Source: Nanobdellota archaeon
GTDB lineage: Archaea > Nanobdellota > Nanobdellia > Pacearchaeales > GW2011-AR1
NCBI GenBank assembly: GCA_038045185.1
Contig: JBBSYO010000022.1
Coordinates: 164-64,163, forward strand
Direction of reading: 5' to 3'
DNA length: 64,000 nucleotides
Position numbers and translations under genes: made by a program. The notes beneath the pieces are model-generated. The model was not told the origin of the DNA and searched no databases. It was given only the letters and a program-made list of their open reading frames with translations. Positions 11,479 through 48,799 of this stretch are shown piece by piece. Each line of letters begins with the position of its first letter. Position 1 is the stretch's first letter.

Positions 11479-11550
11479 TTGCAAAGAAGAAGAGATGTTG
11501 TGCCACTGCCGTCGTCTGGGTTCAGCGTGTATTTTCGAGGGGATGCGGGC

Positions 11551-15726: not shown

Positions 15727-15879
15727 GTGGAACAAGTATGCCGTCATTGTCGATACCGTTATGAGGGACTTAACCCTAAAAAAACGTGTCCTTATTGCGG
15801 CGAAACTGGTCTCGTTACGGTTGAAGGGGCAGAGGATCTTATTGATGACCTTAATAAATCACGAATAATTCTTGCATAA
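15727..15879 (+). CDS. possible small zinc-ribbon protein (GTG start)
   Basis: 50 aa ORF with CRHC...CPYC (two CxxC pairs); no ATG, so a GTG start is assumed; overlaps the possible TTG start of the next gene. Confidence 0.25.
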   Translation: MEQVCRHCRYRYEGLNPKKTCPYCGETGLVTVEGAEDLIDDLNKSRIILA

Positions 15880-15880
15880 C

Positions 15881-16894
15881 ATGATAGCCATTTACCCCCT
15901 TGTATTGTTTGCCGTCAGTTTTTTTCTTACTCTTATTATAATGCCTTATTGGATACGGAAAGCTCATCAAATAAAGTTGGTTTGGGGAGACATGAACAAA
16001 TATGAAAGCCGTCTTGTCGCTGGCTCTGGAGGAGTAATTGTTCTGGGCAGCTTTATTGTTGGGGTTTTGTTTTTTATTGCCTATCGAATATTCTATTTGC
16101 AGGTCTCGGATTATTTGGTTGAAATATTGAGTTTGCTTGTGACTATGACGTTATTGGGAGGCATCGGTCTTATTGATGACCTGTTGGGATGGCAACACGG
16201 AGGATTATCACGGCGCTCGCGCATCCTGCTCGTCAGTCTTGCTTCGCTGCCCCTTATGGCGATAAATGCCGGAAAGGCAAGCATGGATTTACCTGTCTTG
16301 GGCGTGGTTGACTTCGGTCTTGTCTACCCTTTAGTTTTAATCCCGTTGGGAATTGCTGGTGCGTCTGCTACTTTTAATTTCCTTGCGGGTTTTAACGGTC
16401 TGGAAGCTGGACAAGGAATATTAATATTGGGCGCGTTGAGTGTTGCTGCCTACTTCACAGGGAATCATTGGTTGGCAGTTATTGGAATTTGCATGATTGC
16501 AAGCCTCCTCGGATTTTTGCTATTTAACTTCTTTCCTGCGCAAGTTTTTCCTGGTGATTGTTTAACATATCCTGTTGGGGGCATGATTGCAATTATGGCA
16601 ATATTGGGAAATTTCGAGAAGATTGCTGTCTGGTTCTTCATTCCGGTGATAATCGAAGTTGTGCTAAAGGCAAGGGGGCGGTTTGTCAAGCCGTCGTTCG
16701 GTAAGCCGCAGAAGAACGGTTCACTTGAGACTCCTTACCCAGAATTGTATGGATTGACACATGTAGCCCTTTGGGTGCAGAAGCGGCTCGGACTAGTGCC
16801 TACTGAACGCAGAGCAGTACTTCTTATTTGGGGATTCCAACTAATTATTATTCTTATTGGCTTCATCATTTTTAGAGGAGGAGTATTCTCTTAA
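15881..16894 (+). CDS. aglH: UDP-GlcNAc:dolichyl-phosphate GlcNAc-1-phosphate transferase (AglH/Alg7/GPT, MraY-WecA family)
   Basis: about 337 aa from ATG 15881 (ORF track uses TTG 15872); polytopic; DDLLG and FNFLAGFNGLEAG motifs of the GT4/MraY family. Confidence 0.8.
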   Translation: MIAIYPLVLFAVSFFLTLIIMPYWIRKAHQIKLVWGDMNKYESRLVAGSGGVIVLGSFIVGVLFFIAYRIFYLQVSDYLVEILSLLVTMTLLGGIGLIDDLLGWQHGGLSRRSRILLVSLASLPLMAINAGKASMDLPVLGVVDFGLVYPLVLIPLGIAGASATFNFLAGFNGLEAGQGILILGALSVAAYFTGNHWLAVIGICMIASLLGFLLFNFFPAQVFPGDCLTYPVGGMIAIMAILGNFEKIAVWFFIPVIIEVVLKARGRFVKPSFGKPQKNGSLETPYPELYGLTHVALWVQKRLGLVPTERRAVLLIWGFQLIIILIGFIIFRGGVFS

Positions 16895-18106
16895 ATGTTT
16901 AACAGAGAGTTTATTCGTGGCGGCCTCATTCTCGTTTTTTGTTTTGGCGTAGCCAACCTCATCAATTTTGCGTTTCACTTAAGCATGGCTAGATTTTTGA
17001 GCGTTGCGGATTATGGTCTGCTCGCAACACTTTTAGCCATCATCTATCTGCTTTCAATTTTATCAGAGTCTGTTCAGACCATTGTCTCAAAAAACGCTAG
17101 TAATAAAGAAGTTGATGTTCTTGGGGTAATGAATCGGTCTATGCGAAAAATGATGCGCCCCGCATTATTGCTATTCGCAACTTATCTAATTGTGTCTATA
17201 CCCTTGTCCGTCTTTCTCGATATCCCTTACTTCCTTCTTTCTCTAAACGGATTAATGATATTTGGTTCACTTTATATGCCAATTAACCGCGGATTGCTTC
17301 AGGGAAAAAAGAGGTTTCTGCCTCTCGGAGGCAACATGGTTATAGAGTCTGTCGGCAAGTTGGCTCTTTCTCTTGTTCTCGTTATAATTGGGTTTGCAGT
17401 ATATGGTGCAATTATCGGGGGTCTGCTAGGGGCCGGACTCGCTTATGCCGTGTCTTTTATCAACCTCAAGCCCCTATTCAATCGCAGCAAGAAGTTGGTT
17501 AAGAAAGAAATAGAATATAATTACGATAAAAAATCTTTCCTTACGATATTTTCTATAATGACTTTCTTTGCTATTGACATCGTTGTGGCGCGAATAGTTT
17601 TTGAGCCAAGCGTTGTTGGGACATATGCAATTGCGTCTACTATTGCCAAGACTATATTCTTTGCAACGATGCCGGTGGGCAAGGCAATGTTTTCATTTAC
17701 TGCTGAAAAATCCAGCGCGGAAAAATCTGAGAAAGTCTTTCTCAATGCACTAACATTTATTGGTTTTGGGATAATTGTTGCCTTAACCATGTTTTATTTC
17801 TTCCCCGGCTTGTGGGTGTTTATCTTTTCTGGTAAGCATTTACCGCTGGCGGCAGGTTCGCTCTTTATCCTTGGCATAGCTTATAGCCTAATTAGTCTTA
17901 CGAATCTGGTTCTTCTTTATAAAATTTCTATCGGCAATGTGCGCCACATATGGCTTATCGTCCTAATGCCAGTTATAGAAGTTGTGCTTCTATTCATTTT
18001 CTCTAAAAACATAATGCAATTTTCATTTGCCCTTGTAACGAGTTCAGCGTTGTTCTTGTGGGTTTCCCTTAGCAGCGATTATAGTTATAGTAGAAGACAT
18101 AAATAA
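16895..18106 (+). CDS. polytopic membrane protein, probable oligosaccharide flippase (Wzx/MATE-like)
   Basis: 403 aa, about 10-12 TM helices; located between aglH and the glycosyltransferase genes; family assignment is tentative. Confidence 0.45.
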   Translation: MFNREFIRGGLILVFCFGVANLINFAFHLSMARFLSVADYGLLATLLAIIYLLSILSESVQTIVSKNASNKEVDVLGVMNRSMRKMMRPALLLFATYLIVSIPLSVFLDIPYFLLSLNGLMIFGSLYMPINRGLLQGKKRFLPLGGNMVIESVGKLALSLVLVIIGFAVYGAIIGGLLGAGLAYAVSFINLKPLFNRSKKLVKKEIEYNYDKKSFLTIFSIMTFFAIDIVVARIVFEPSVVGTYAIASTIAKTIFFATMPVGKAMFSFTAEKSSAEKSEKVFLNALTFIGFGIIVALTMFYFFPGLWVFIFSGKHLPLAAGSLFILGIAYSLISLTNLVLLYKISIGNVRHIWLIVLMPVIEVVLLFIFSKNIMQFSFALVTSSALFLWVSLSSDYSYSRRHK

Positions 18107-18715: not shown

Positions 18716-19507
18716 ATGCGCGTTTCGATTATTATACCTGCGTATAACGAGGAGAGACGTATATTGCCAATGCTCAGGCGATACGGAGAGTATTTTGAAG
18801 ACCTGAGAAAGAAGCGGGAGCTGAACTATGAATTTCTCGTTGTAATTAACAATACGACCGACAATACTCTTTCTGTGGTGAAGAATGCGCAAAAAACCAA
18901 CCCGCGTATCCACTATCTCGACCTCAAACTAGGCGGAAAGGGGCTTGCCATTATTGCGGGATTCAAAGACGCGCTCAAGCGACCCAACGACCTAATCGGG
19001 TTTGCCGATGCCGACATGGCAACTCCCCCAGAGGCCTTTTACGACCTTGTGCGTTCTGTTAATCGGTGCGATGGGGTCATTGCAGCCAGATGGAGACGCG
19101 AGAGCGTTATTACAAGGCAGACATCATTATTCAGAGTCAAGAGCTTCATTTTCAACCTAATCGTGCGTTCGCTCTTCCTTTTTCCCTATAGGGACACACA
19201 ATGTGGGGCGAAACTATTTACGCGGCGCGCCATTGAACATGTGCATGATAAAATGAGCATTACGAAGTGGGCCTTTGATATTGACCTTTTATACAAATTA
19301 CGAAAACTTGGATTCGCAGTTATAGAAAGACCTACTATTTGGGAGAGTAAAGAAGATTCACGCATTCGGCTCGTTACCGCATCTGTAGAAATGTTTTTGG
19401 CTGTTATTCGCCTGCGGCTTGTTCATTCCCCAATGGCATTTATCGTGCGAACCTATGACGCTCTCCCGCAACAATTAAAAATGCACCACCGTATCTGGAT
19501 TCAATGA
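18716..19507 (+). CDS. GT2 glycosyltransferase, dolichyl-phosphate hexosyltransferase-like (DPM1/AglD-AglJ-like)
   Basis: 263 aa; IIIPAYNEE...DxD-type motif FADADMATPPE...QCGAKLF typical of Dol-P sugar synthases. Confidence 0.78.
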   Translation: MRVSIIIPAYNEERRILPMLRRYGEYFEDLRKKRELNYEFLVVINNTTDNTLSVVKNAQKTNPRIHYLDLKLGGKGLAIIAGFKDALKRPNDLIGFADADMATPPEAFYDLVRSVNRCDGVIAARWRRESVITRQTSLFRVKSFIFNLIVRSLFLFPYRDTQCGAKLFTRRAIEHVHDKMSITKWAFDIDLLYKLRKLGFAVIERPTIWESKEDSRIRLVTASVEMFLAVIRLRLVHSPMAFIVRTYDALPQQLKMHHRIWIQ

Positions 19508-19983
19508 CGATTGCATTAGTTTCTTCACAAGGCGGGCATTCTGGACAAATGCGTATTCTTTTTACACCTAGCGTCTTGGAAAATCATCGTGCCATTTTCA
19601 TAACAGAGTCCGAATCTGCGCCAATGACTGTTCGTGATAAAGGATTTCAGGGGAAGTATAAGACGTATTACCTTGAGAAGGATGTTCTTTTACAACTCAA
19701 TCCTGTAGCTTACATAAAGAGCGTGATGGATTTGTACAATGTCTTCAAGCGCGAGAAAGTTCATCTTGTAATTACGAATGGTGCCCAGATTTCTATAACC
19801 GCAGGTATTGCCGCGCGTATTCTTGGCATACCCCTTGTTTTTATTGACACTGTTGTGCGCGTTAAGACTCCTGACTGGTCTGCTCGCGTCTGCTATTTTC
19901 TCTCTGACGTTTTTATAGTGCAGCATGCCTCAATGGCTCGCAGATATGGTCGTCGTGCGATTTATCGCGGAGAGATTCTATGA
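19504..19983 (+). CDS. Alg14-like UDP-GlcNAc transferase membrane-anchoring subunit
   Basis: 159 aa; SQGGHSGQM motif (compare the Alg14 GGHTxEM motif); ATGA-coupled to the Alg13-like gene. Confidence 0.72.
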   Translation: MTIALVSSQGGHSGQMRILFTPSVLENHRAIFITESESAPMTVRDKGFQGKYKTYYLEKDVLLQLNPVAYIKSVMDLYNVFKREKVHLVITNGAQISITAGIAARILGIPLVFIDTVVRVKTPDWSARVCYFLSDVFIVQHASMARRYGRRAIYRGEIL

Positions 19984-20456
19984 TTTTTGTCACTGTGGGC
20001 ACTCACCCTGGTGGATTTGACCGTCTTATACGCCACATGGACAAGATTGCAGGATTATTGAAAGAGAAAGTTATTATTCAGAGGGGATTCAATAAATACA
20101 CTCCGCAGAATGCGGAGTACTTCGATTTTGCAGATAACCTTGAACCGTACTTTTCCAAGGCGCGCATCGTCATCAGCCATTCTGCCACCTCGCTCGTTGA
20201 ATTTGTTCTAACCCAAAAGAAACCAATCATCGCAGTACCTAGGCGTGCAGATTTCGGTGAGCATATTAATGACCATCAAGTCGAATTCGCACGTTATCTC
20301 GAGCATAAACTTGGCATTAAGGCAGTAATGAATATACATGAGATTACTTCTGCGTTGTTGATTGGATACAATACTCTACCGCGCGTTGATCGCAGCGGAA
20401 TGAAACGTTTGCAAAATTTTTTAAAAAATATTATTTCGACTTATGAACCCAATTGA
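19980..20456 (+). CDS. Alg13-like UDP-GlcNAc transferase catalytic subunit (GT28 C-terminal domain)
   Basis: 158 aa; MIFVTVGTHPGGFDRL start typical of Alg13/MurG C-terminal domain proteins. Confidence 0.72.
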   Translation: MIFVTVGTHPGGFDRLIRHMDKIAGLLKEKVIIQRGFNKYTPQNAEYFDFADNLEPYFSKARIVISHSATSLVEFVLTQKKPIIAVPRRADFGEHINDHQVEFARYLEHKLGIKAVMNIHEITSALLIGYNTLPRVDRSGMKRLQNFLKNIISTYEPN

Positions 20457-25666: not shown

Positions 25667-28396
25667 TTAAACCCGAAGTAGCTCTGGAGGCCATTCCTCG
25701 CTGAGGTATTCTTTCTTAAATTCGATATCGCTTGGGTAGTGTATTTCCCATATTTTTATTGGACCACGTAGCGCGTCATAACTTATGATTGATGAGTTAA
25801 AGCTGGGCACTTGCTTTTTTATTTCGGCAACAAAAAAATCATCCTCTGAATGAACCAATTCGAAATTTGGATTGACCTCATTGTAGAAGTATAGCCGTGC
25901 AAATTGAGAATTTACGGCCCTAGAGCTTAGATAGAGTAGTGAACCGTCATCTTGTATTTGCAATCCATTGGCGCCGTTAATCAAACGGGGAATGAAAAAT
26001 ACACCAGATTCGATGCCGCTACCGAAGTCTTTTAGCTCTCCATCAAATGCATATCTTAAAGGAAGGTTATACTGTCGGTCTTGGTTCACGAATATGCCTA
26101 CTGGCTGGCTTATCATCTCCCCAGTTGTAGATGATTTTTCTATTAAGAGGGCACCAAGAGCAGCCGTGCCTTCGGGCAGAAATATTCTTGTCCCGTTATC
26201 TTCATAAATTATATCTGCGTCCAGTAGAACGCCTCCAGAATATAAAAAGACGGTTGAGTTCTTTCTTTCCTGAATCTGGCTTAAATCTTGATTGAATGTT
26301 GCAAAGAAGCTAACGCGATCATAGTTTTTATCAGAGCCTATACTGGAAAAGGCGCTATATTTCCCGATATCTGTAGAATCGATGAGGAAATGAGTGGTAT
26401 TGTGCGCGTACAGAAATTCTAACGCTTCCTTATTGCTTGTTCCTGTAAGTGCGTATCTACCCATAAGATGATTCCAATAAGATTTTGCGTTGCCCCCGTC
26501 CAGAACAGTAGCACGTTCGCCTAGAGTCTGAACCCAATACCCGTAATCCCACCAATGACCAAATACTGCGTTTGGGGGCGTGCTTTCTCGCACCCAAGCC
26601 ATTGCCTTCTGCCATTGTTGATTGTACGGACTTGGAATGTAACCTGCGGCCGTGGCGACTGAAGTCTTATAAAACTGATATCCTGAAAAGATAAAGGCTA
26701 CGATTATTATGCCTGCACAGATTATTGAGATTGTGCGCTTAGTTGACTTCTCTGTATTTAGTGCGAGACTTGCTATTTCAACCGAGAGATATGCGGCAAG
26801 TATAGATGCCGCAGGGACTAGCATCATAACCAGTCTAATGCCGCCCCTGGCAGATATTAGACTTATCAAAAAGAAGCACAAGACAAAGATAGAACTGAAT
26901 TCTATATTTTTGAGCCGTTCTTGTTCTCCAGACTTGTAGTGTAGGCGATAGTAATAACCTAATGTTGCCAGAAGCACTATGGGTCCGAGGGCGTAAAATA
27001 ACAGGCTCAAACCATTTGTGCCGTTGAAGGTGCTGTTTCCGGAATATCTGCTAAAGATGATTGAAGTTAAAAATAACGTAAATGCCAATGTGGAGAGCAT
27101 TCTCTCTCTTGAGTTAAGAGACTTGATTGCCCTGTAGAACAAGCCAATGGCCCCAAAAAAGAATGACCAGAATATTATTTTTACTCCTGCTATTTTAGGT
27201 CCGAAACTGTCGGCCCATTCAACAAAATAGGGCTGTTTATTTTCTGCAACAGTGACGCTCAAACGATCTGTAGACGTCGTCACTAGGAATTTCTTCAGAG
27301 TTAGGACTTTCTCTCCTATCAGACTTGGTCCGAAAACAATAGCGCTAACAACTAGTACAAGGACTATCGTTGTTAAAAGAGAAAAAATCGGTCTTGGAAT
27401 TTTAGCTATTTTCTCATGGGATAAATAGTTCTTTATACGTGTATCAAATAAAATTGAATCGACTATTATAACGAGAAGCGCAAGGACGCTGGGAAGATTT
27501 GTCGTTGAGGTCAACAGTTCAGAGAGGGAATAACGGTTCGTGCCAAGGAACAGGAGGATGAAAGCGGTAAGAAGCCAGACTGCATAAAGGTATTTTTTCC
27601 CTTTATCCATCTTTCCCAAAAGGAACGCAATTAGAACTGCCGGACCTATGGTAAGAATGATGTAGAGATATCCGCCCCATACGAGGCCCATGAGATCTGT
27701 AGATATTCCTGCAAGCAGACCATAGGTGTATCTACTGATTTGACCTCTTGCTTTCCATCCGCACATGAAAAAATAGAACGCGAGGAAGAGGAACAAAATT
27801 CCGCTTGCTTCCTTTTCTGGAATGCCTGCAATTGTTCGCGGCAGCAGGGCTGGAATGACTGATAAGAAGAGAGATGCGACAAGCGCGATAATGTTGGCCT
27901 TGTTTTTGCCCATATTTTCTGCAAAGAACTTTCGAGTCATAAAAAAGAAGGTAATAACTGCCAAGGCGAACATGACTGCAGGATATAGCACTGCAGATTG
28001 AGTTATTGAGCCCGACCCAAAAAATACAGCTATTTTGTGGAACCAAGTAATTAGATAGACGTGCAGATTGAGTTCGTATGCGGTGTCGTATCCGAGCGGC
28101 GCATATCGCATAGTATCGACAACCATCAAAGCGCCATGCTCTAGGATATACTTAGCCCATCTCAAGAATAGAAAGGGATCGAGGTCTGGTCCAAGTGTCC
28201 AGTCTCCAGTCGTTATATCTCTCAGCCCTGGCAGATTAGCGATTCTTATTCTTATGGCAAGGAAGGTTATGATTGCGAGAAGAACGTAAGAGATAAAATT
28301 CGTGTCTTTTTTTATAAAATTCAGAACTTTTTCTTTTCTTTCCCGTATAATGGTTTCGCTATGGTCTGAGGCGCTTGATTCGTCCATTGCTACCAA
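25667..28396 (-). CDS. aglB: oligosaccharyltransferase AglB (STT3 family)
   Basis: 909 aa; 13-TM N-terminal region, WWDYGYW motif, DIGK (DK-type) motif, early DLD loop. Confidence 0.9.
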   Translation of the reverse strand: MVAMDESSASDHSETIIRERKEKVLNFIKKDTNFISYVLLAIITFLAIRIRIANLPGLRDITTGDWTLGPDLDPFLFLRWAKYILEHGALMVVDTMRYAPLGYDTAYELNLHVYLITWFHKIAVFFGSGSITQSAVLYPAVMFALAVITFFFMTRKFFAENMGKNKANIIALVASLFLSVIPALLPRTIAGIPEKEASGILFLFLAFYFFMCGWKARGQISRYTYGLLAGISTDLMGLVWGGYLYIILTIGPAVLIAFLLGKMDKGKKYLYAVWLLTAFILLFLGTNRYSLSELLTSTTNLPSVLALLVIIVDSILFDTRIKNYLSHEKIAKIPRPIFSLLTTIVLVLVVSAIVFGPSLIGEKVLTLKKFLVTTSTDRLSVTVAENKQPYFVEWADSFGPKIAGVKIIFWSFFFGAIGLFYRAIKSLNSRERMLSTLAFTLFLTSIIFSRYSGNSTFNGTNGLSLLFYALGPIVLLATLGYYYRLHYKSGEQERLKNIEFSSIFVLCFFLISLISARGGIRLVMMLVPAASILAAYLSVEIASLALNTEKSTKRTISIICAGIIIVAFIFSGYQFYKTSVATAAGYIPSPYNQQWQKAMAWVRESTPPNAVFGHWWDYGYWVQTLGERATVLDGGNAKSYWNHLMGRYALTGTSNKEALEFLYAHNTTHFLIDSTDIGKYSAFSSIGSDKNYDRVSFFATFNQDLSQIQERKNSTVFLYSGGVLLDADIIYEDNGTRIFLPEGTAALGALLIEKSSTTGEMISQPVGIFVNQDRQYNLPLRYAFDGELKDFGSGIESGVFFIPRLINGANGLQIQDDGSLLYLSSRAVNSQFARLYFYNEVNPNFELVHSEDDFFVAEIKKQVPSFNSSIISYDALRGPIKIWEIHYPSDIEFKKEYLSEEWPPELLRV

Positions 28397-29505: not shown

Positions 29506-30066
29506 TTAAAAGAGCGCACCTATCTCCTTAAATAAAGGATGCTTCTTGTCACGTTCAGAGAGAATTGGATTTTTTATACCCCAGATGATTGCCAGTTCGG
29601 AATCGTTCCAGATTATTCCTCCTTCGGATTCTTTATTATAAGGAGAGGTCGCTTTGTAGTGCATGATTGTATCGTCTTCAAGCGCGAGGAAACCGTGAGC
29701 AAAACCCGCAGGTATCCAGAGCATCTTATTATTCTCTCCTGAAAGAATCGTGGAAAACCATTTCCCATTGGTTGGAGAATGCTCTCGTATATCGACTGTT
29801 ACATCAAGCGCCTTGCCTCGTATCACCCTGACCAGTTTTCCTTGTGCAGAGGGATATTTCTGAAAATGCAAACCACGTATAACTCCTTTTTTTGAGCGTG
29901 ATTGGAATTCTAAGGGAAATTTAAGCGGAATATGCATGGACTTTAATTTCTCATAGTTATAGTTTTCGAAGAAAGTACCACGAGCATCTGTAAACACATC
30001 TGGTAAAATCTCAACAAGACCTTCGAATGGTGTCTTCTTGATTTCCATAGGAATGCAAACGCGCAT
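29506..30066 (-). CDS. rmlC: dTDP-4-dehydrorhamnose 3,5-epimerase
   Basis: 186 aa; cupin with RGLHFQ and WIPAGFAHGF motifs characteristic of RmlC. Confidence 0.85.
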   Translation of the reverse strand: MRVCIPMEIKKTPFEGLVEILPDVFTDARGTFFENYNYEKLKSMHIPLKFPLEFQSRSKKGVIRGLHFQKYPSAQGKLVRVIRGKALDVTVDIREHSPTNGKWFSTILSGENNKMLWIPAGFAHGFLALEDDTIMHYKATSPYNKESEGGIIWNDSELAIIWGIKNPILSERDKKHPLFKEIGALF

Positions 30067-30104: not shown

Positions 30105-31355
30105 GTGAACCTTGAGTCAGCACGTATGGACAAGGAAGGACTATTGGCGCTCATCCGCGATGATGCGCGTGTATTTAATGCAATCAATGCACTGAGAAAC
30201 TCCTTTAGCCCGTTGCGATTTAATGATGTTCGCATTCCTAACGCCACACCGGCGGAGGCAATTAAACGAGGAATTCGGACTGTTCAAGAAACGCTTACGG
30301 CGTATGATGCTTTTGGTTTGAAGGTTGACGACATGGACCCTGGTCACGGAGTAGGGCACTTAGCGCGAGATTATATTAATGCCTTGCGACTTACGCATAT
30401 GGATTACGTAACTGATCCCAGCCATCTCTTTGTAGGGTTTGTTGGGGGAGTTTTACATGATATGGGAAATGCGATTGTTGAACGCTATGAAGAAGGTAAG
30501 CGGGTTACACGCCACGGTGAAGCTGGAGCGCTCCTTTTCAATGAGGCGACAAAAGACCTTGACCTTAATGATGCAGAACGTACTCTTATTGCTCATTCTA
30601 TTGCGGCTCACACCCATTACCTGAAACCCTTGTGTGTTAAGGGAGTAGATGGTATAGAACGTACTTTGCCTCCCTACCAAGATACGGATGAGGAAGGCAA
30701 GCCTGTCATGGGGGTATGGCTGCCTCGATGGATTGATAGACTGGATTGTAATGGTTCGGCTTTCTTGGGCAGACACTTTTTGACACTCGTGAACCCACGA
30801 GATGAATTTGACGGCGAGAAATTCTATCAAACTGATATTGTGAGCGCGTTGAATCCTCTATTGCGACCAGAAGTAGAGATTAAGGTGGCTGGAGCACATC
30901 CCCTTACTATGCGTGAGCATTTACGCAGGTATGCACGCACCCAAAGCAATAATTCTCCCTATGGAAAGCATGATAACGGAACTATGCAATCTCTGCGCGA
31001 TACCAATACAACCGCGCTTAATGCTATAATCGGAGCAGTCGATCGCGACGCGCTTCTTGGCTCGTCAGACATAGAACACATTCTGGGAAGGTGGACCACG
31101 TTCTTATCTGGAAATGTTGAGCCTAGCATGCTTGGAAGACACGCTGCTGAAAAAATGCGCAGCAAGTTTGGCGAACTTGATGAGTCCACACGGCGGGCTT
31201 GGGCATCTGGTTTTGATCAGGCTTTAGAGACGTATCGTGTCTGGGCCGCAATGGCAAAGAGTCAGGTCGGGGAAATTATTGGTTCAGATGAAGAAGCTCA
31301 GAAGCTACCTCTTTTAAACAAGAATGTTTTTGACGTCCTGAAACCTGCCTACTAA
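30105..31355 (+). CDS. HD-domain phosphohydrolase family protein with an uncharacterised C-terminal half
   Basis: 416 aa; H...HD...H...D pattern (GHGVGH, VLHDMGN, RHGEAG, AHSIAAHTH); GC-richer than its neighbours; opposite strand inside the rml cluster. Confidence 0.55.
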   Translation: MNLESARMDKEGLLALIRDDARVFNAINALRNSFSPLRFNDVRIPNATPAEAIKRGIRTVQETLTAYDAFGLKVDDMDPGHGVGHLARDYINALRLTHMDYVTDPSHLFVGFVGGVLHDMGNAIVERYEEGKRVTRHGEAGALLFNEATKDLDLNDAERTLIAHSIAAHTHYLKPLCVKGVDGIERTLPPYQDTDEEGKPVMGVWLPRWIDRLDCNGSAFLGRHFLTLVNPRDEFDGEKFYQTDIVSALNPLLRPEVEIKVAGAHPLTMREHLRRYARTQSNNSPYGKHDNGTMQSLRDTNTTALNAIIGAVDRDALLGSSDIEHILGRWTTFLSGNVEPSMLGRHAAEKMRSKFGELDESTRRAWASGFDQALETYRVWAAMAKSQVGEIIGSDEEAQKLPLLNKNVFDVLKPAY

Positions 31356-32545
31356 GATTTATTCTTACTATCCAAAAACTGCTTGAGAATTCCATAATAA
31401 TCGTTTTTCTGATTATTCGGCATACCCCAACACGGGATAAACATGCCGGATTCTTCGATTTCATCCCCTATTTTGAAGACATCGTGCATGGGGATTGACT
31501 CAACAGTGCGAAATATTTTCTGTTTGAGAATATTGCCGCACATAACAGGTCTAATTTCCACTTTCTTCTCCGTCAAGTACGACACAAACTCTGCGCGAGA
31601 AAAGGGAGCATCATGTTTTACCACTAAAGGATATGCAAACCAACTCGGTTGTGCCTTTGGGTGCGATTGAGGAAGGTGAAAGAAATTATATTGTCTAAAT
31701 AACGAATTAATTTCGTCAAATTGCTTTTTTCTGGCAGATACAATATTAGGTAATCTGCCCATTTGTTGTGCACCGAATGCGGCTTGAATTGCAGTCATTT
31801 GGCTGTCGGTTCCGAGGGTGAGATATTTGTAGCGATTGAGAAACTCTTCACCCGCACCGAAATCCCTTCCCCAAAAGATGATGCTGCGCGCGATGGGACT
31901 TAACTCGTCGCGATTAGTTCCGAAAGCCCCGCCTACGCCGGCAGCAGTTATGTGATGTGAACCATAAAAACTAAATGCGGCTGCTGTGCCAAATGAACCT
32001 ACGTGTTTACCATTAAAATAACATCCCAGTGTGTCGCAGCAATCTTCAATAAGGAATCGATTTCCAAGGGCTGCGAGAATACGATTCATGTCAGGTACAT
32101 TTCCTAGCAAATGAGGCAGGATAAGACCCTTAATTTGGGGGTATTTCTTGATAGCGCGCTCGACTTCTTCAGGATCAATAACATATGTGTATGGTTTTGT
32201 CTCCACAAAAACAGGAATTACGCCGAAATCGATAGCTGATGAAATACTCGTGGCAAACGTGGTTATTGGGTGAATCACTAAATCGCCGCGCCTTAGTGCG
32301 CCTTGGTGAATCAGACTCTTTATCGCAACGAGAATGGCAGATGAACCGCTATTCGTCAAATGAATATGCTTTATGCCAGTATAGTCTGAAAGTTTCTTCT
32401 CAAAATCCTTATTGAATTCCCCGTATCCGAACCAATCTGCATTAAAGACGCCTTGGACTGCTTCGATTTCTTTTTGAGTCCATTGTATACGATTTATCAG
32501 ATGAGAATCTCCTGTCTTTTCCCACTTTTTCCATTCCAAGGTCAT
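31352..32545 (-). CDS. DegT/DnrJ/EryC1-family PLP enzyme; His replaces the PLP-Lys, predicting a sugar 3-dehydratase (ColD/E1-like)
   Basis: 397 aa; fold type I aminotransferase-like; where aminotransferases have SFHxxK, this protein has SFYGSHHITAAG. Confidence 0.7.
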   Translation of the reverse strand: MTLEWKKWEKTGDSHLINRIQWTQKEIEAVQGVFNADWFGYGEFNKDFEKKLSDYTGIKHIHLTNSGSSAILVAIKSLIHQGALRRGDLVIHPITTFATSISSAIDFGVIPVFVETKPYTYVIDPEEVERAIKKYPQIKGLILPHLLGNVPDMNRILAALGNRFLIEDCCDTLGCYFNGKHVGSFGTAAAFSFYGSHHITAAGVGGAFGTNRDELSPIARSIIFWGRDFGAGEEFLNRYKYLTLGTDSQMTAIQAAFGAQQMGRLPNIVSARKKQFDEINSLFRQYNFFHLPQSHPKAQPSWFAYPLVVKHDAPFSRAEFVSYLTEKKVEIRPVMCGNILKQKIFRTVESIPMHDVFKIGDEIEESGMFIPCWGMPNNQKNDYYGILKQFLDSKNKS

Positions 32546-32559
32546 TACATTGGAACCTC

Positions 32560-33426
32560 TTAGCGGTTTTTATAACTTTGTATTTTTGTCTGTATTGCTT
32601 GCAAGGAATTAACCAAACTTGGACAGGAATATCCTGTTAATTTTCTGAGGTTTATTGAATTAGTCCCATTGTTAAGCGGGCGTTGCGCCGTCTGGTTCAG
32701 GGCTGCTGTTGTAATAGGCTCTAAAAGATATTTATTTAGGTTAAAAACGTCTGCGACAAGACATGCGAAATCGAATCGATTGACCTGTGTTGGGCCTGTT
32801 GCAACATATAACCCATTAATATTTTTATTGAGTATGTGCTCTATGTAGTCGCCTAAAACCGCTATATCTGTCGGATTACTTATTTGGTCTTTGGGTATCT
32901 TGCGGGGACCGGTAAGATTGAGAAGTTGCATAAGGAAATTTAGACCTCCGGGGTCATATCCAAAAACGACAGTCGTTCTTAGAATAGCGTGAAGGGGAAG
33001 TGTGCGCACAATATTTTCAGCCTCCAACTTTGTTTTTCCGTAGATGTTGAGCGGGTTCGTTTCTGATTTCTCATCGTAATTATTGGTTTGCCCCGAGTAG
33101 ACATAGTCCGTGGAAATATAGATTATTTTTTTATTATTCTTATTTGCCCATTCAACTAAATTTTTAGTTGCGTAGACATTATTTTTATAGGACTCATCTT
33201 GGTGTGTTTCGCAGTAGTCAACATTAGTTAAGGCTGCGCAGTGAATTATAACATCCGGATTCAGCTCCCCGAGCACTTTTTCTGTTTGCTGTGAAGTTAA
33301 GTCTAATACGAGGGTAGTTGTGGGAGATTTCCTCCTTGAAATCCCAAAAATCTCATGTTTTAATTTAAGTCGCTCGCACAGTTTCTTCCCGACAAATCCC
33401 GCTGAACCAGTTATAAGAACTTTCAT
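32560..33426 (-). CDS. rmlD: dTDP-4-dehydrorhamnose reductase
   Basis: 288 aa; ITGSAGFVG Rossmann motif, YxxxK (YGKTK); RmlD-like length. Confidence 0.78.
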   Translation of the reverse strand: MKVLITGSAGFVGKKLCERLKLKHEIFGISRRKSPTTTLVLDLTSQQTEKVLGELNPDVIIHCAALTNVDYCETHQDESYKNNVYATKNLVEWANKNNKKIIYISTDYVYSGQTNNYDEKSETNPLNIYGKTKLEAENIVRTLPLHAILRTTVVFGYDPGGLNFLMQLLNLTGPRKIPKDQISNPTDIAVLGDYIEHILNKNINGLYVATGPTQVNRFDFACLVADVFNLNKYLLEPITTAALNQTAQRPLNNGTNSINLRKLTGYSCPSLVNSLQAIQTKIQSYKNR

Positions 33427-33430
33427 AAGT

Positions 33431-34984
33431 TTACATTATTTGGAGGACGTCGTGAGAACCGTTTTTGACGAGGCTATTAGCTCTGAAAAGGCTTTCGAAC
33501 GCCCCCGCATCGGTCCAGTACCCCTTAACAAAGTCAAATGTAAGCTGGTTTATTTTTATATATGCGTTATTCACATCCGTAATTTCAAGCTCCCCACGTT
33601 CTGATGGAATTATAGTATCTATAATATTAAAGACCTTATTATCGTACAAATATAAACCGGTAACGGCATAGTTTGATTTGGGATTTTTCGGCTTTTCTTC
33701 AATTGAAACTATTTTGTCATCATTTATTTCTGCAATTCCGAACCTGTGCGGGTCTTCTACTTGTTTAACAAATACTTTTGCTCCTTCTTTGAACTCAGAT
33801 ATATCAAATATGTCCTGAAAAATATTGTCTCCCAATATTACTGCAATGCCGCTGTCTCCTGCAAAATCTCTTGCGAGTCCCAAGGCTTGGGCTATCCCTC
33901 CGGATTCTTCTTGGATTTCGTAGGATAAATTGAGACCGAGTTCTTTTCCGCTCCCCAATAAACTAAGAATTTGCCCGCAGTGTTCTCTTCCTGAAACAAC
34001 CAAGATATCAGTTAAGCCCATCGCCTTTAGTGTTTCAAGAGGATAGAATATCATTGGCTTATTGTAAATCGGGAGCAGGTGTTTATTGATAACTTTAGTG
34101 AGAGGCAATAACCGCGAACCTGTTCCACCGGCAAGCACAATGCCCTTTATTTTTCTTTGCGAGTCCATATTCTTTCGGTATTCCATCAAACATTGGCGCA
34201 CTGCGATTCGTGTATCAGAAACTTCGATGGATAGAGATTCTAGTTTCTTAGTGGACAACACAGAGTTTGAACGTTTTGCCTTTGAAACCGCATCAAGCTG
34301 GGCGGGAGAGATAACCTGATAAGCCATTTTCCGATTAGTTATTTCCTGATAAATTCCCAATATCTCTTCGTGAGTAATTGCTCCCTTGTTTACCAAATTA
34401 AATACTCCGCTTTGGTTTCGATCCATTAATTCTTTTGTTATTCTAAGCATGTCGGGAATAACGGTTACTGAATTTTCTGCGCCTATAATTTTCTTATAGA
34501 TAAGAAGTCGCGATATTAGATTCTTGTTGTGGGGTATGTTATCTATAGGCATTCGTATCCGTATTTGAAGCACGTTGTTAAACTCCTTAAGCAAATTTTC
34601 TGCAGAAATCTTTGTTCTGGCATAATGATTTTCCGTAAAGTTTGGCTCATCGCCTTCTGAAAATCCATTGCCATTATTATTTCCTTCATAAATGTCGCCG
34701 CTCCCTATATGAACCAATCGCTTTTTTAGAGATTGACATGCTTGCAGTAAATAGCCGGGCACAAGAATGTTCGATTCGGTTGTTTCTATTCTATGCTCCT
34801 CACACCAGTCAATACCTGTTTTTCCTATACAATTGATAACAATCTCTGGGTCGTATTTCGTTATCTCTTCTATTGCGTTTGCAACACTCACAATCTTAGA
34901 TCCCGAGAGTACACTATTTTCAAGAAATGCTCTGAAACGATTGCCCAAATACCCGTTTCCGAGAATGAGATATTTGCAAGTCAT
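33431..34984 (-). CDS. rmlA: bifunctional RmlD-like reductase / glucose-1-phosphate thymidylyltransferase (RmlA) fusion
   Basis: about 518 aa from the ATG that overlaps the rmlB stop (ATGA at 34981-34984); N-terminal SDR-like (LILGNGYLG...YARTK); C-terminal GIVLAGGTGSRLLPLT nucleotidyltransferase. Confidence 0.78.
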   Translation of the reverse strand: MTCKYLILGNGYLGNRFRAFLENSVLSGSKIVSVANAIEEITKYDPEIVINCIGKTGIDWCEEHRIETTESNILVPGYLLQACQSLKKRLVHIGSGDIYEGNNNGNGFSEGDEPNFTENHYARTKISAENLLKEFNNVLQIRIRMPIDNIPHNKNLISRLLIYKKIIGAENSVTVIPDMLRITKELMDRNQSGVFNLVNKGAITHEEILGIYQEITNRKMAYQVISPAQLDAVSKAKRSNSVLSTKKLESLSIEVSDTRIAVRQCLMEYRKNMDSQRKIKGIVLAGGTGSRLLPLTKVINKHLLPIYNKPMIFYPLETLKAMGLTDILVVSGREHCGQILSLLGSGKELGLNLSYEIQEESGGIAQALGLARDFAGDSGIAVILGDNIFQDIFDISEFKEGAKVFVKQVEDPHRFGIAEINDDKIVSIEEKPKNPKSNYAVTGLYLYDNKVFNIIDTIIPSERGELEITDVNNAYIKINQLTFDFVKGYWTDAGAFESLFRANSLVKNGSHDVLQIM

Positions 34985-35970
34985 GATGTTCGCTTTCCCT
35001 GCGTTAGTTTTAATGGTCGCCACCATCCTTCATTTGAAGTGTACCACTGGACTGTGTAATTAAGCATTTCCTGAAAACTTGATGCGGGCAACCATCCAAG
35101 CGCACAGAGTTTTGAACAATTGAGCGAGTAACGTAAATCGTGACCTTTTCTATCTTCAACATAGTTGATGTGCAGTTCATCTTTCATCATAATTGCAAGT
35201 ATGAGCTTGGTGAGATCTTTATTAGTTATTTCGTTCCGCCCCCCTATATTATATACTTCTCCCGGGCTGCCTTTGTGGATTACTGTGTCAATTGCCCCGC
35301 AATTATCTCGTACATACATCCAGTCCCTTACATTTTTTCCTTCGCCGTATAAGGGAACCTTCTTTCCGTCAATAATATTTGTTATAAAGAGAGGTATTAC
35401 CTTTTCTGGAAATTGGTACGGCCCAAAATTATTCGAGGATCGCGTGATAATGATGGGCTGTTTGTGAGTGTGTATGTTCGCAAAACAGAGCATTTCTGCA
35501 GCAGCCTTAGAAGCACTATAAGGCGAGGAAGGTTTCAACGTATCTGTTTCTACAGAGGGGGGCTGTTCAAAACTAAGTGACCCGTATACTTCGTCAGTCG
35601 ATATTTGGACAAAGAGTTTAGCTTTTTTTTCACGGGCTACGTCTAAAAGAACCTGAGTTCCCAACACATTCGTTTTTATGAATATCTCAGGATCCAAAAG
35701 AGAATTATCTACGTGGGATTCCGCGGCAAAATTAACAATGACGTCTCCTTCATCAAGTATATTAGACATCGCTTTTCTATCGCATATATCTTCTTTAAAG
35801 AACTTATAATTCTGTTCTTTCTCTATATCTAAGAGGTTGTTTAGGTTACCAGAATAGGTCAACTTATCGATATTTACGAAAGAGTAATTGGGATATCTCT
35901 TTATCATGTGACGGATGAAATTACTACCTATAAACCCTGCCCCCCCCGTTATAACAAATCTTTGCTCCAT
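34981..35970 (-). CDS. rmlB: dTDP-glucose 4,6-dehydratase
   Basis: 329 aa; ITGGAGFIGSNF, YSASKAA catalytic motif. Confidence 0.9.
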   Translation of the reverse strand: MEQRFVITGGAGFIGSNFIRHMIKRYPNYSFVNIDKLTYSGNLNNLLDIEKEQNYKFFKEDICDRKAMSNILDEGDVIVNFAAESHVDNSLLDPEIFIKTNVLGTQVLLDVAREKKAKLFVQISTDEVYGSLSFEQPPSVETDTLKPSSPYSASKAAAEMLCFANIHTHKQPIIITRSSNNFGPYQFPEKVIPLFITNIIDGKKVPLYGEGKNVRDWMYVRDNCGAIDTVIHKGSPGEVYNIGGRNEITNKDLTKLILAIMMKDELHINYVEDRKGHDLRYSLNCSKLCALGWLPASSFQEMLNYTVQWYTSNEGWWRPLKLTQGKRTS

Positions 35971-39498: not shown

Positions 39499-40245
39499 AT
39501 GCGCTATCAAAACATTCTAATTACCGGAGGCACGGGAAAACTCGGAAAGGCGTTGCTTGCTTCCAACTTCTTCAAAAGGAAAGTGTTCGCGCCTACGCAT
39601 ACCGATATGGACATTACCAACAAAGAACAGGTAGGGCGCTACTTCAATGAGCATGAGATTGATGCAATCATACACTGCGCTGCGCTTATTAATATGAAAG
39701 AGTGCGAGACTAATCCTGCCTCGGCTATCAAAGTCAATATTAATGGGACAGGCAATTTGGTAGAAGCGGCATTAAATAAACCTCACACGAGATTCGTTTA
39801 TATCTCTACTGATTACGTGTACCCTTGTGAAAATGGACCCTATAGCGAAAGTGATTCTGCGATTCCATTTACTTCCTATGGCTGGACAAAGTTGGGCGGA
39901 GAATGTGCTGCACGCACAATTAAAGACCACTGCATTGTCCGAACAAGTTTTTTTAACCCGGTGAATATTCCTTATGACGCTGCTCCTCTTGATTCATTTT
40001 GTTCAAAGATTCCCATATCTGAGTTAGCCGAGGCAATTATTGCTCTGCTTGACAGCGATTTTGTTGGGGTGATAAATGTCGGACAGGAACGAGCGAGCCT
40101 TTATGAGATATTTAAGAAGTATAAGCCTAGTATCCAATCACAGACGCTTGAAGAAATTAATCGTGCGGCTCCAATAAAGCGCGCGAAAGATTCTTCATTA
40201 GACGTGAGCCTTTGGAATAAATTTAAGGCGCTGGCGAAGACTTAA
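39499..40245 (+). CDS. NAD(P)-dependent sugar-nucleotide reductase/epimerase (RmlD-like SDR)
   Basis: 248 aa; ITGGTGKLG, YGWTK (YxxxK); third RmlD-like paralogue in the window. Confidence 0.62.
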   Translation: MRYQNILITGGTGKLGKALLASNFFKRKVFAPTHTDMDITNKEQVGRYFNEHEIDAIIHCAALINMKECETNPASAIKVNINGTGNLVEAALNKPHTRFVYISTDYVYPCENGPYSESDSAIPFTSYGWTKLGGECAARTIKDHCIVRTSFFNPVNIPYDAAPLDSFCSKIPISELAEAIIALLDSDFVGVINVGQERASLYEIFKKYKPSIQSQTLEEINRAAPIKRAKDSSLDVSLWNKFKALAKT

Positions 40246-44000: not shown

Positions 44001-45227
44001 ATGGTACGTAAGAAATGCTTGGTATGTGATTCGGAAGAATTAAAGCAGATTATTGATTTGGGAAGTCATCCGTTTGCAGATACATTCGTGCCTGAATCGC
44101 GACTGAACGAGCCCGACAGCATTTATCCGCTTGTTTGTGATTTGTGCATGCAATGCGGTCATGTGCAGACGCGATACGAAACAAATCCTATAGCGCGATA
44201 CTCACAGGTCGATTATTCGTACACTTCTTCCAATTCTAATTTCTCGCGCAAACACTGGGAAGATTATGCGAAAGAAGTTTCATCTGAAGTGAAAATCAAG
44301 CCCGACGCCTTGGTGGTGGAAATTGGTTCTAATGATGGTTATCTTGGCGAACAATTTACTAAATCAGGGCAGAAGGCAGTTGGAGTGGATCCTTCGCCTT
44401 ACATGGCTGAGTTGGCTAAACAAAGAGGCGTGGAAACAATTGTTGGTTTGTTTGGAAAGGGGTCTGCTCAAAAAATTCTTGCCCGATATGGACAAGCAGA
44501 TTTAGTAATTGCAAATAACGTGTTCAACCACGCTGACAACCCTGTTGAATTTACCAATGCCGTTGCAGATATTCTTAGCGTGGGAGGAAGTTTTGTATTT
44601 GAGCAGCCCTATTGGCTAATTGGTGTCGAGAGCGGGAAGTTTGACCAGATTTATCATGAGCATGTAAGCTATTTTACCGTGCGCTCTGCAGCCGCAGTAC
44701 TCGCGCGGGCGGGAATGGTACTCACATCTGCTAAAGTTGTTGATTATCACGGGGGGTCGTTGAGAATTATCGCGCAGAAGAAAGAGGACGCTCATGGAGT
44801 GTCTGAAGAGGCGCAAAAAAGGATACGGGAAGAAGAGGCGCGCGGGCTGTTTAAACTTGAAATTTACAAGCAGTTCATGCGGCGCAATCTCTTGCAACGA
44901 AGCAGATTTTTACAGAAAGTTCATCAGATAAAAGAGGCAGGAAACTCGATTATTGCTGTTGGTGCGGCGGCTAAGGGAAATACTTTTCTGAATTTCTACA
45001 AACTTGATGGCAGTTTAATTGATTACGTAACTGATTCTTCACCACATAAAAAAGGAAAGTACACGCCAGCTACGCGAATCCCGATAGTTGGGGATGAAAT
45101 ATTTTTAAAATATGGTAAAGTGTACGCGCTCATCCTTTCTTGGAACATAGCCCCTCAACTCAAAGAAACTTTATCCAAGTTCAATAAAAACATTGAATTT
45201 ATTTCTCCTGAGGTTGAGAAAATTTAA
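44001..45227 (+). CDS. NDP-hexose C-methyltransferase-like protein (TylCIII family; Zn-ribbon + SAM MTase + C-terminal domain)
   Basis: 408 aa; N-terminal CxxC...CxxC (CLVCDS...CDLCMQCG), then VVEIGSNDG motif I and the characteristic C-terminal domain. Confidence 0.68.
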   Translation: MVRKKCLVCDSEELKQIIDLGSHPFADTFVPESRLNEPDSIYPLVCDLCMQCGHVQTRYETNPIARYSQVDYSYTSSNSNFSRKHWEDYAKEVSSEVKIKPDALVVEIGSNDGYLGEQFTKSGQKAVGVDPSPYMAELAKQRGVETIVGLFGKGSAQKILARYGQADLVIANNVFNHADNPVEFTNAVADILSVGGSFVFEQPYWLIGVESGKFDQIYHEHVSYFTVRSAAAVLARAGMVLTSAKVVDYHGGSLRIIAQKKEDAHGVSEEAQKRIREEEARGLFKLEIYKQFMRRNLLQRSRFLQKVHQIKEAGNSIIAVGAAAKGNTFLNFYKLDGSLIDYVTDSSPHKKGKYTPATRIPIVGDEIFLKYGKVYALILSWNIAPQLKETLSKFNKNIEFISPEVEKI

Positions 45228-47671: not shown

Positions 47672-48799
47672 TTAGTTAATTTTTACGCCGCGTTGTTTGA
47701 GGATTTCCTTGGCTTTCTCGATGTAGAATCCCTTGGGCTTGACTTCTCCATTTTTAATTGGGATGATTCCCTCAGATTCCAATTTCTCCTTGATATCAGC
47801 TTCGACCATCATTTCAGCTATCTCCTTAAATTTCACCTTGGATTCCCATTTAAGAATGTCTTTTGCCTTAGAATAGTCTCCCAATAATGCCGGAACTTCA
47901 GCAGGCCGTTTAAAACGGTCGTCAATGATAACATAATCTTCATAGTTTAGTCCGACTAATGAAAAAGCAAATTGTAAAAATTCGCGCACAGTATGAGTTT
48001 CATTGGTCGCAATAACGAAATCATCAGGATGTGAATGCTGCAATATGTGCCACATAGCTTGCACATACTCTGCGGAAAACCCCCAGTCGCGCTTGGCATC
48101 AAGATTGCCCATTTTAATTTTATTTATTTCGCCAACTACGATTCTGGCCAGTTCCATTGTAATCTTTCTTGTCACGAAATTATGACCTCGCCTTGGAGAT
48201 TCGTGATTGAAAAGAATTCCGTTCGAGGCGAAAATATTATAAGCGTTCCTGTACATTTTTACTAGATGAAACGCAGCCACCTTTGATATGCCATATGGGC
48301 TTTGTGGCTGAAATGGGGTGCTTTCATTTTGCGGGGGCGGAGAAATACCGAACATTTCAGAAGACGAGGCTTGATAAAATTTACATGGCAGGTTCATGTC
48401 CCTGACTGCGTCTAACAGTCGCAGGGTTCCGAGGGCGTTTATATCAAACGTAGAAAGCGGATTGTTAAAACTAATTCCTACGTGGCTCTGCGCACCTAAA
48501 TTATATATTTCGTCAGGCTTAACGAGTTCTAATATTGAACGCAAGCTTGGAGCATCGGTTAAGTCCGCGTAATAAAGTGCAAACTGCACTTCGGAATTTT
48601 GCATCATGTCAGAGTTATAAGTTTTATAAAGGTGGTCTATTCTGCGCGTGTGAAGCGTGGAAGAGCGGCGCATGATGCCTCTGACGAAATAACCTTTTTT
48701 TAGCAAAAATTCTGCCAAATATGAGCCGTCTTGCCCAGTTATTCCTGTGATGAGGGCGACTTTTTTATTTTCCATGAAACGTAACAAAAACCGCTCCAT
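47672..48799 (-). CDS. gmd: GDP-mannose 4,6-dehydratase
   Basis: 375 aa; ALITGITGQDGSYLAEFLL, YGISK, and the highly conserved GMD segments NHESPRRG. Confidence 0.9.
   Translation of the reverse strand: MERFLLRFMENKKVALITGITGQDGSYLAEFLLKKGYFVRGIMRRSSTLHTRRIDHLYKTYNSDMMQNSEVQFALYYADLTDAPSLRSILELVKPDEIYNLGAQSHVGISFNNPLSTFDINALGTLRLLDAVRDMNLPCKFYQASSSEMFGISPPPQNESTPFQPQSPYGISKVAAFHLVKMYRNAYNIFASNGILFNHESPRRGHNFVTRKITMELARIVVGEINKIKMGNLDAKRDWGFSAEYVQAMWHILQHSHPDDFVIATNETHTVREFLQFAFSLVGLNYEDYVIIDDRFKRPAEVPALLGDYSKAKDILKWESKVKFKEIAEMMVEADIKEKLESEGIIPIKNGEVKPKGFYIEKAKEILKQRGVKIN

Follow-up and report, generated by a model that had tools for sequence, protein, structure and literature searches.

The current understanding of how the C3 hydroxyl group is removed from sugars comes from three studied enzymes. 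E1 and SpnQ carry a [2Fe-2S] cluster and require a reductase, whereas the cluster-free ColD releases its product by hydrolysis and has its pyridoxamine 5′-phosphate (PMP) restored with glutamate (PMC8987622). ColD-family heptose 3-dehydratases have likewise been assayed with a glutamate-driven scheme (PMC10440746). The catalytic position that is held by a histidine in E1 and ColD is the Schiff-base lysine site of aminotransferases. Here we describe a gene (positions 31352..32545, minus strand, ATG start) in a 64,000-nucleotide stretch of DNA from a Nanobdellota archaeon (contig JBBSYO010000022.1, positions 164 to 64,163; hereafter, the window), which encodes a 397-amino-acid His-type enzyme of the DegT fold. 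From sequence comparisons and by analogy with ColD, we propose with a probability of roughly 0.6 that this protein is a cluster-free 3-dehydratase that acts on a deoxythymidine diphosphate (dTDP)-linked sugar. The exact product of the pathway is predicted with less confidence.

An earlier note on this DNA, made from the letters alone, had pointed to replacement of lysine by histidine at the pyridoxal 5′-phosphate (PLP) site, and this substitution is real. The active-site motif SFYGSHHITAAG (31937..31972, minus strand) is an exact translation and contains the dyad Ser196-His197, wherein His197 (codon CAT, 31957-31955) replaces the Schiff-base lysine and is followed by His198 (codon CAC, 31954-31952). 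In HMMER alignments to solved structures, His197 falls in the column of E1 His220 and ColD His188, at which the E1 H220K mutant (PDB 3bb8) carries Lys and the ColD H188N mutant (PDB 3b8x) carries Asn. Lys-type DegT aminotransferase paralogs from the same loci read K-N/T/V at the His197-His198 columns, and the alignment with ColD, E1, and aminotransferases that the note had named as a check thus keeps His at the catalytic column. All 120 of the closest database homologs have His-His at both columns, which marks the substitution as characteristic of the family and excludes a sequence error or random change; Ser196 is invariant in this set as well. Homologs of 396 to 406 amino acids cover 98 to 99% of the target protein, which indicates that the gene model is sound.

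Membership of the target in the broad class of His-type, PMP-dependent DegT sugar 3-dehydratases is well supported by sequence comparison and by a structure model. The Pfam family DegT_DnrJ_EryC1 (PF01041) matches residues 24 to 373 with an E-value of 1.7e-66. Single-sequence searches of the PDB gave E-values of 4e-56 for E1, 2e-39 for ColD, 5e-38 for entry 9wvy, and 1e-33 for the best aminotransferase, and a family profile scored the same proteins at 324, 228, 193, and 178 bits, respectively. Identity to the target is 36.7% over 338 amino acids for E1 and 26.9% for ColD. An AlphaFold2 model computed from a 27-sequence alignment (predicted local distance difference test score of 93.6 and predicted template modeling score of 0.92) was matched by Foldseek to E1 first (TM 0.92), followed by ColD (TM 0.88) and then by aminotransferases. 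In an alignment of 94 His-type and Lys-type sequences from 80 genomic loci, the target carries every residue that is common to four His-type groups (see below) and different in aminotransferases (N65, S68, T99, C170, H197, H198, I199, R272, R332, G337, and N338), in addition to D168, S192, and other cofactor-site residues that are universal in the alignment. Residue roles beyond those given in the review (PMC8987622) rest on alignment. Entry 9wvy, a 399-residue protein deposited as a “putative NDP-4-keto-6-deoxyglucose-3-dehydratase,” belongs to the same fold family, has a similar length, and bears a name that implies the same substrate class; judged by the family-profile score, it is further from the target than is ColD.

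The earlier note had assigned the protein to sugar 3-dehydratases of the ColD/E1 type. The class holds, with a full His-type residue signature and with E1 and ColD as the best matches, but the protein is strictly of neither type. E1 (also RfbH, DdhC, or AscC; CDP-6-deoxy-L-threo-D-glycero-4-hexulose 3-dehydrase; PDB 3bcx and 3bb8) is its closest characterized relative. Both have the DegT fold, the WGR motif, and a His pair at the catalytic position, and Cys170 of the target corresponds to E1 Cys193. The residue preceding the catalytic His is Ser in the target and Ala in E1. Moreover, E1 has a [2Fe-2S] loop, a partner flavin/[2Fe-2S] reductase called E3 (AscD/RfbI), and genes for CDP-glucose (DdhA/DdhB), whereas none of these is present in the target or elsewhere in the window. 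The cluster of E1 is reportedly held by a cysteine motif of the form C-X57-C-X1-C-X7-C, which Agnihotri et al. are said to have described in 2004. In our alignments, the E1 segment RDCYCAPGCDNTCKKRF, which includes Cys251, Cys253, and Cys261, is missing from the target, and the deletion is shared by 120 of 120 homologs. The only Cys that is invariant in the clade is C170, and the same Cys is retained by ColD.

Searches for the remaining parts of an E1 system gave a similar picture. The best NCBIfam model for the target is RfbH (NF011936), but the match is split into two pieces and its 259 bits fall short of the cutoff of 423. Pfam scans of approximately 50 open reading frames (ORFs) across the 64-kb window revealed no ferredoxin, no FNR-like (Fer2/FNR) protein, and no E3-like protein, and a motif scan of all 307 window ORFs yielded zero instances of the plant-type [2Fe-2S] ferredoxin signature. 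The neighboring nucleotidyltransferase and 4,6-dehydratase are of the dTDP type, with CDP models of NCBIfam scoring just 40 to 92 bits. Orthology with E1, and with it the “E1 type” of the earlier note, was rejected because the iron–sulfur loop is deleted, the score lies below the RfbH cutoff, and the window contains neither E3 nor CDP-glucose genes. Proteins of the clade are automatically named “aminotransferase” by NCBI and “CDP-6-deoxy-D-xylo-4-hexulose-3-dehydrase” (E1) by JGI, and both names are likely wrong in detail. A general 3-dehydratase prediction is therefore already present in the JGI names; what appears to be new from the sequence comparisons is a cluster-free E1-like group coupled to dTDP-rhamnose-type genes.

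This coupling is evident in the operon that contains the gene, which the earlier note had correctly described as a location among rmlB, rmlA, and rmlD. On the minus strand, the order is rmlB, a fusion gene, an RmlD-like gene, and finally the target gene; rmlB overlaps the fusion gene, and the following intergenic gaps are 4 and 14 nucleotides. RmlB (dTDP-glucose 4,6-dehydratase; 34981..35970, minus strand) scores 433.8 bits against the TIGR01181 equivalog cutoff of 365 and is the presumed maker of the 4-keto-6-deoxy substrate. The fusion gene (33431..35026, minus strand) joins a domain resembling the 3,5-epimerase/4-reductase NRS/ER to an RmlA glucose-1-phosphate thymidylyltransferase domain, and its Pfam matches are NTP_transferase (9e-53) and, weakly, RmlD_sub_bind; its best NCBIfam match is rmlA at 246 bits. 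The N-terminal domain (approximately 285 amino acids) is not a classical RmlD and instead matches plant NRS/ER (PDB 4qqr, 3.9e-38) and the Mimivirus UDP-L-rhamnose synthase (PDB 7jid, 3.3e-36). In the alignment, it has Asp at the position of the cysteine in the NRS/ER “ATGCIF” motif, which we take to be an epimerization residue, and this domain may accordingly be a reductase only. A different fusion, RmlB::RmlA of 621 amino acids, occurs in the relative at locus L001.

Directly upstream of the target gene, across the 14-nucleotide gap, lies the gene for an RmlD-like short-chain dehydrogenase/reductase (SDR) of 288 amino acids (RmlD288; 32560..33426, minus strand), which is the probable 4-ketoreductase partner. 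It matches Pfam RmlD_sub_bind at 1.5e-60 and PDB RmlD structures at approximately 1e-31, and its score with the TIGR01214 rmlD model is 189 bits, under the cutoff of 224. The gene for RmlC, dTDP-4-dehydrorhamnose 3,5-epimerase (29506..30066, minus strand; TIGR01221, 198.6 bits versus a cutoff of 155.75), is a possible source of 5-epimerase activity on a 3-deoxy intermediate and is located 1.3 kb from the target gene, beyond a convergent orphan ORF at 30105-31355. The epimerase and reductase capacity of the surrounding gene island exceeds what rhamnose would need and is therefore compatible with a second, 3-deoxy branch.

To place the target among its relatives, we sorted the His-type sequences into four groups by the loop that follows the WGR motif. 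Group (a), which includes the target, has FWGRDF and a short loop without Cys; group (b), the iron–sulfur group that includes E1, has DWGRDCWC...C; group (c), a second Cys-free group drawn mostly from Patescibacteria, has EWGRAA...RFT; and group (d), which is ColD-like, has GW[IV]R[DE]. The tree is a bootstrapped neighbor-joining (distance) tree from 390 columns and 100 replicates, and a likelihood analysis with more characterized sequences would be firmer. Group (a) was monophyletic in 99 of 100 bootstraps, and the separation of all His-type sequences from Lys-type aminotransferases was equally frequent (99/100). Support was 93/100 for group (b) and 78/100 for group (d). Groups (a), (b), and (c) came together away from ColD in 75 replicates, and group (a) joined ColD in none, which leaves the “ColD type” of the earlier note without a place in the tree. 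A first rooted neighbor-joining tree had shown clade (a) as sister to all other His-type sequences, but this arrangement was rejected because the grouping of the iron–sulfur, (c), and ColD sequences that it entails appeared in 8/100 replicates, and the E1 side is favored. The target thus represents a separate cluster-free lineage on the E1 side of the His-type family, one that is found in DPANN archaea and on uncultured viral contigs.

In the pathway that we envision, the RmlA domain and RmlB would supply dTDP-4-keto-6-deoxy-D-glucose, and PMP would form a Schiff base (ketimine) with its C4 keto group. His197 would then take the C4′ proton, and the 3-OH would be eliminated. Because a [2Fe-2S] cluster and an E3-type reductase are both missing, and with them any path for electron transfer, we propose that the 3,4-ene intermediate is hydrolyzed as in ColD to yield dTDP-4-keto-3,6-dideoxyhexose and ammonia. 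The same two absences suggest that an amino donor, for instance L-glutamate, would convert PLP back to PMP, in a reductase-independent, amino-donor-driven cycle that the target would be expected to have in common with ColD. Synthesis of a dTDP-3,6-dideoxyhexose would be completed by the RmlD-like reductase, either by itself or together with RmlC. If RmlC and RmlD-type reduction operate as they do on the way to rhamnose, 3-deoxy-L-rhamnose (ascarylose configuration) would result, and a D-series sugar of the paratose or abequose type would be expected if RmlC does not participate. The resulting sugar would be used by glycosyltransferases of the island described below.

Several points weigh against this proposal. 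The clade was previously uncharacterized biochemically, and the searchable literature yielded no account of a dTDP-4-keto-6-deoxyglucose 3-dehydratase. The nucleotide of the substrate and the stereochemistry of the product are predicted from gene neighborhood. Adjacent SDR genes that are GalE-like and directly downstream are found in the DPANN loci L002, L009, L010, L012, L018, and L019, and at locus L015 a gmd gene with 67% identity lies 4 kb from the clade member; different members may therefore use different nucleotides. The pairing with RmlD288 is not unique, in that RmlD288 is one of three or four candidate 4-reductases in the window, the others being the NRS/ER-like domain and the products of 39499-40245 and 53741-54823. 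Finally, the clade resides on the E1 side of the tree and not with ColD, and ColD-like turnover would then be either convergent or ancestral and retained.

The alternative that survives best, although we consider it unlikely, is that the target has some other activity, such as that of a 4-aminotransferase (single-turnover or glutamate-driven), a 4-keto-sugar epimerase/isomerase, or a dehydratase whose step comes later than RmlC or than C-methylation, and that its product is no simple 3,6-dideoxyhexose. An uncharacterized clade leaves room for such activities, and genes for C-methyltransferases recur near its members, in the window as well as at L009, L010, L015, and L018. Further tailoring is also suggested by the thiamine diphosphate (ThDP)-dependent and B12-radical-SAM (S-adenosylmethionine) neighbors at L002. 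Yet every residue that separates characterized dehydratases from aminotransferases is conserved in the target, and its regular partner is an SDR of the ketoreductase type, which is what one would expect to follow a deoxygenation step. In addition, wild-type ColD and E1 do not carry out transamination under the reported conditions (PMC8987622).

Less probable still, and in our view quite doubtful, is that the target is a GDP-4-keto-6-deoxymannose 3-dehydratase of the ColD type, which would receive its substrate from the gmd gene of the window and make GDP-colitose or a related GDP-3,6-dideoxyhexose. ColD (also WbdK; PDB 2gms, 3b8x, 2r0t, and 3gr9) has the same fold and, like the target, no iron–sulfur cluster, and the Ser-His dyad of the target is identical to ColD Ser187-His188, in contrast to the Ala-His of E1; PDB 3gr9 is the S187N/H188K double mutant of ColD. 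The gmd gene noted earlier at 47672-48799 (minus strand) is also genuine (443 bits versus a cutoff of 415), and a second example near a clade member is that of L015. Nevertheless, gmd is 15 kb away from the target gene and sits beside its own C-methyltransferase and SDR genes, whereas the target gene is translationally packed with rmlB, rmlA, and rmlD. ColD-like relatives adjoin gmd in at least 10 loci, and clade (a) adjoins rml-type genes instead. As the main reading, a ColD ortholog served by the gmd gene of the window was rejected on the basis of the identity of 26.9%, the 0/100 bootstraps with ColD, and neighbors that are rml rather than gmd genes. The C. jejuni heptose C3-dehydratases were likewise set aside because they are 62 to 67% identical to ColD and so belong to another clade than the target.

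The distance to gmd and the rml-type neighbors of the clade also bear on the sugar itself, for which the earlier note had predicted a 3,6-dideoxy structure of the colitose or ascarylose kind. A 3-deoxygenated 6-deoxyhexose remains a reasonable expectation, with a dTDP-linked route favored, but the GDP-colitose route is unlikely on these grounds. SpnQ-type TDP-4-keto-2,6-dideoxyglucose 3-dehydratases, which are His-type DegT enzymes that act on dTDP-linked sugars and share this class with the target, differ from it in that they have a [2Fe-2S] cluster, employ general ferredoxin/flavodoxin reductases, and depend on a 2,3-dehydratase and a 3-ketoreductase that act before them; none of these features is seen in the window. 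A Nudix-type hexose 2,3-dehydratase was absent among the approximately 50 window ORFs scanned with Pfam, and a SpnQ-type 2,3,6-trideoxy route was rejected for want of both this enzyme and the cluster cysteines. That the target is an E1/RfbH-type or SpnQ-type dehydrase with an iron–sulfur cluster and an external reductase is hardly credible, despite E1 being the best match in sequence and fold, RfbH the best NCBIfam model, the E1 side of the tree the favored position, and E1 the automatic name of its relatives, since the cysteine segment is deleted, the RfbH match is low and broken, the window lacks E3-like and ferredoxin genes or motifs as well as a CDP-glucose pathway, and no 2,3-dehydratase was detected.

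Returning to the proposed cluster-free dTDP-sugar 3-dehydratase, the gene neighborhoods of its relatives indicate how widely the arrangement extends. The closest relatives, with 55 to 66% identity, are all from metagenome-assembled genomes (MAGs) of DPANN archaea (Pacearchaeota, Woesearchaeota, and Nanoarchaeota), among which rmlC, rmlB, or RmlA-fusion neighbors occur at L001/4, L006, L007, L008, and L017. An rmlC gene lies within 1 to 2 kb of the His-type DegT gene at L001/L004, L007, L008, and L086. A second subclade (39–49% identity) consists of six IMG/VR viral contigs and similar dense, co-directional loci (L003 and L084-L093, with examples at L086 5619-8464, L087 6193-8200, and L088 2400-4419). 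These loci have HNH, YopX, ChaB, and Phage_ABA_S genes together with GT2, GT1, Glyco_trans_1_2, and methyltransferase genes, a gene set with the appearance of a module for sugar tailoring and glycosylation that is carried by viruses. An RmlD-like gene is found directly upstream of the His-type DegT gene in nine of the 11 viral or viral-like loci and often overlaps its start, and rmlC precedes the RmlD-like gene at L086. The adjacency of RmlD288 and the target gene in the window is the same arrangement, and L009 also has an abutting RmlD-like gene.

The viral assignment of these loci rests on the IMG/VR classification and on the style of gene content because a PHROG scan of large unidentified neighbors in the viral-like loci revealed no hallmark structural genes and only YopX-type and nucleotide-sugar epimerase families. 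Among the deposited phage genomes of INPHARED, no clade member was found; the best match was a Salmonella rfbH fragment, and cyanophage matches had identities of 29% or less.

A broader reading, which we offer tentatively and regard as somewhat doubtful, is that this distinct reductase-independent, E1-related lineage and its RmlD-like partner (with RmlC in some cases) form a compact mobile module for dTDP-3,6-dideoxy-L-hexose synthesis, which would be common to DPANN archaea, for their AglB N-glycans, and to viruses with glycosylation genes of their own. Were this true, it would amount to the first dTDP-based synthesis of a 3,6-dideoxyhexose and to the first occurrence of such a sugar in Archaea, and the iron–sulfur/E3 system of E1 would be either an add-on to ColD-like chemistry or a feature that has been lost repeatedly.

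The target clade in any case constitutes a well-supported fourth group beside E1, SpnQ, and ColD. Should the enzyme be active as predicted, cluster-free turnover would not be limited to the ColD lineage, and there would be a route to dTDP-3,6-dideoxyhexoses that we did not find described. The chemistry of archaeal N-glycans would also gain a 3,6-dideoxyhexose, in this case in DPANN archaea, which attach to their hosts through their surfaces. The occurrence of this module on viral contigs is a hint that viruses may encode glycan tailoring. The remark of the earlier note that such a sugar would be an unusual archaeal glycan component agrees with the literature: a 2024 review of archaeal N-glycans includes no 3,6-dideoxyhexose among the sugars, a genomic survey reports that 3,6-dideoxyhexoses are rare and that Archaea lack most rare sugars, and no archaeal 3,6-dideoxyhexose was found in the literature that we searched.

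The operon is embedded in a glycosylation island of approximately 40 kb, which follows an archaeal ribosomal-protein/SecY block and contains AglB/STT3, GT4, flippase, and several GT2 genes as well as an Alg13/Alg14-like pair. The presence of an AglB/STT3 oligosaccharyltransferase (25667..28396, minus strand; Pfam STT3 and STT3-PglB_core) identifies the island as archaeal N-glycosylation machinery, which is where the sugar is likely to be used. The island begins, on the plus strand, with a GT4 gene (GlcNAc-1-P-transferase-like, 15872-16894) and a split pair that is Alg14-like and Alg13-like (Glyco_tran_28_C; 19504-19983 and 19980-20456), an arrangement that resembles the one by which eukaryotes begin to assemble N-glycans. 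The gmd gene is flanked by genes for sugar C-methyltransferases of Methyltransf_13/14 architecture (44001-45227, plus strand, and 51278-52510, minus strand) and is grouped with a further SDR gene (53741-54823, minus strand), a set that suggests a separate GDP-linked pathway to a C-methyl-branched 6-deoxyhexose within the island. The short RmlD-like protein of 248 amino acids encoded at 39499-40245 (plus strand) matches RmlD over its first 150 residues. It is conserved with similar length at L009 and L018 (50–61% identity) and is the best match of the reductase beside the His-type DegT gene at the viral loci L089 and L090; judging from this conservation, it is probably a real short protein and not a fragment.

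The orphan ORF that converges on the target gene (30105-31355, plus strand) encodes 416 amino acids from a GTG start and overlaps the target stop codon by 4 nucleotides. It has no match in Pfam, NCBIfam, or the PDB and shows no homology to its positional counterpart at L001. This ORF lies in a stretch that is locally richer in GC (0.454 versus approximately 0.40) and contains H...HD-like motifs. Fragmented ORFs occupy the matching position at L100, the nearest relative of the window, which has the same gene order and 92% identity over the called part of the target protein. Nearly every gene at L100 is split into fragments, which fits an indel-rich long-read assembly and accounts for the truncation of the database protein P0001 to 306 amino acids.

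At the Pacearchaeota locus L002, the His-type DegT and SDR genes lie amid genes for B12-binding radical-SAM, SPASM radical-SAM, and ThDP-dependent enzymes (1188-2723, 10265-11887, and 16426-17203). The ThDP enzyme is reminiscent of YerE-type branching of 3,6-dideoxy-4-keto sugars.

Group (c) sequences, which are cluster-free and E1-like (311 bits to E1), were observed at L038, L039, L045, L053, L056, L057, L074, and L079 in Patescibacteria and relatives, and no characterized member was found in the literature searched. Their gene directly follows RmlA-RmlB at L056 and L057 and is often located beside a Lys-type DegT aminotransferase gene, a context that suggests dTDP-linked 3-deoxy-4-amino sugars. 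Other His-type DegT genes are present in archaeal MAGs (L048, L050, L064, L066, L069, L077, L082, and L083), with the iron–sulfur type in Methanosarcinales and the ColD-like type in Aenigmatarchaeota, Heimdallarchaeota, Bathyarchaeia, and Halobacteria; a gmd-type SDR gene is adjacent to the ColD-like gene at L064, L069, L077, L082, and L083. His-type genes in so many archaeal MAGs indicate that the genetic potential of archaea for 3-deoxygenation is broader than the surveyed literature implies.

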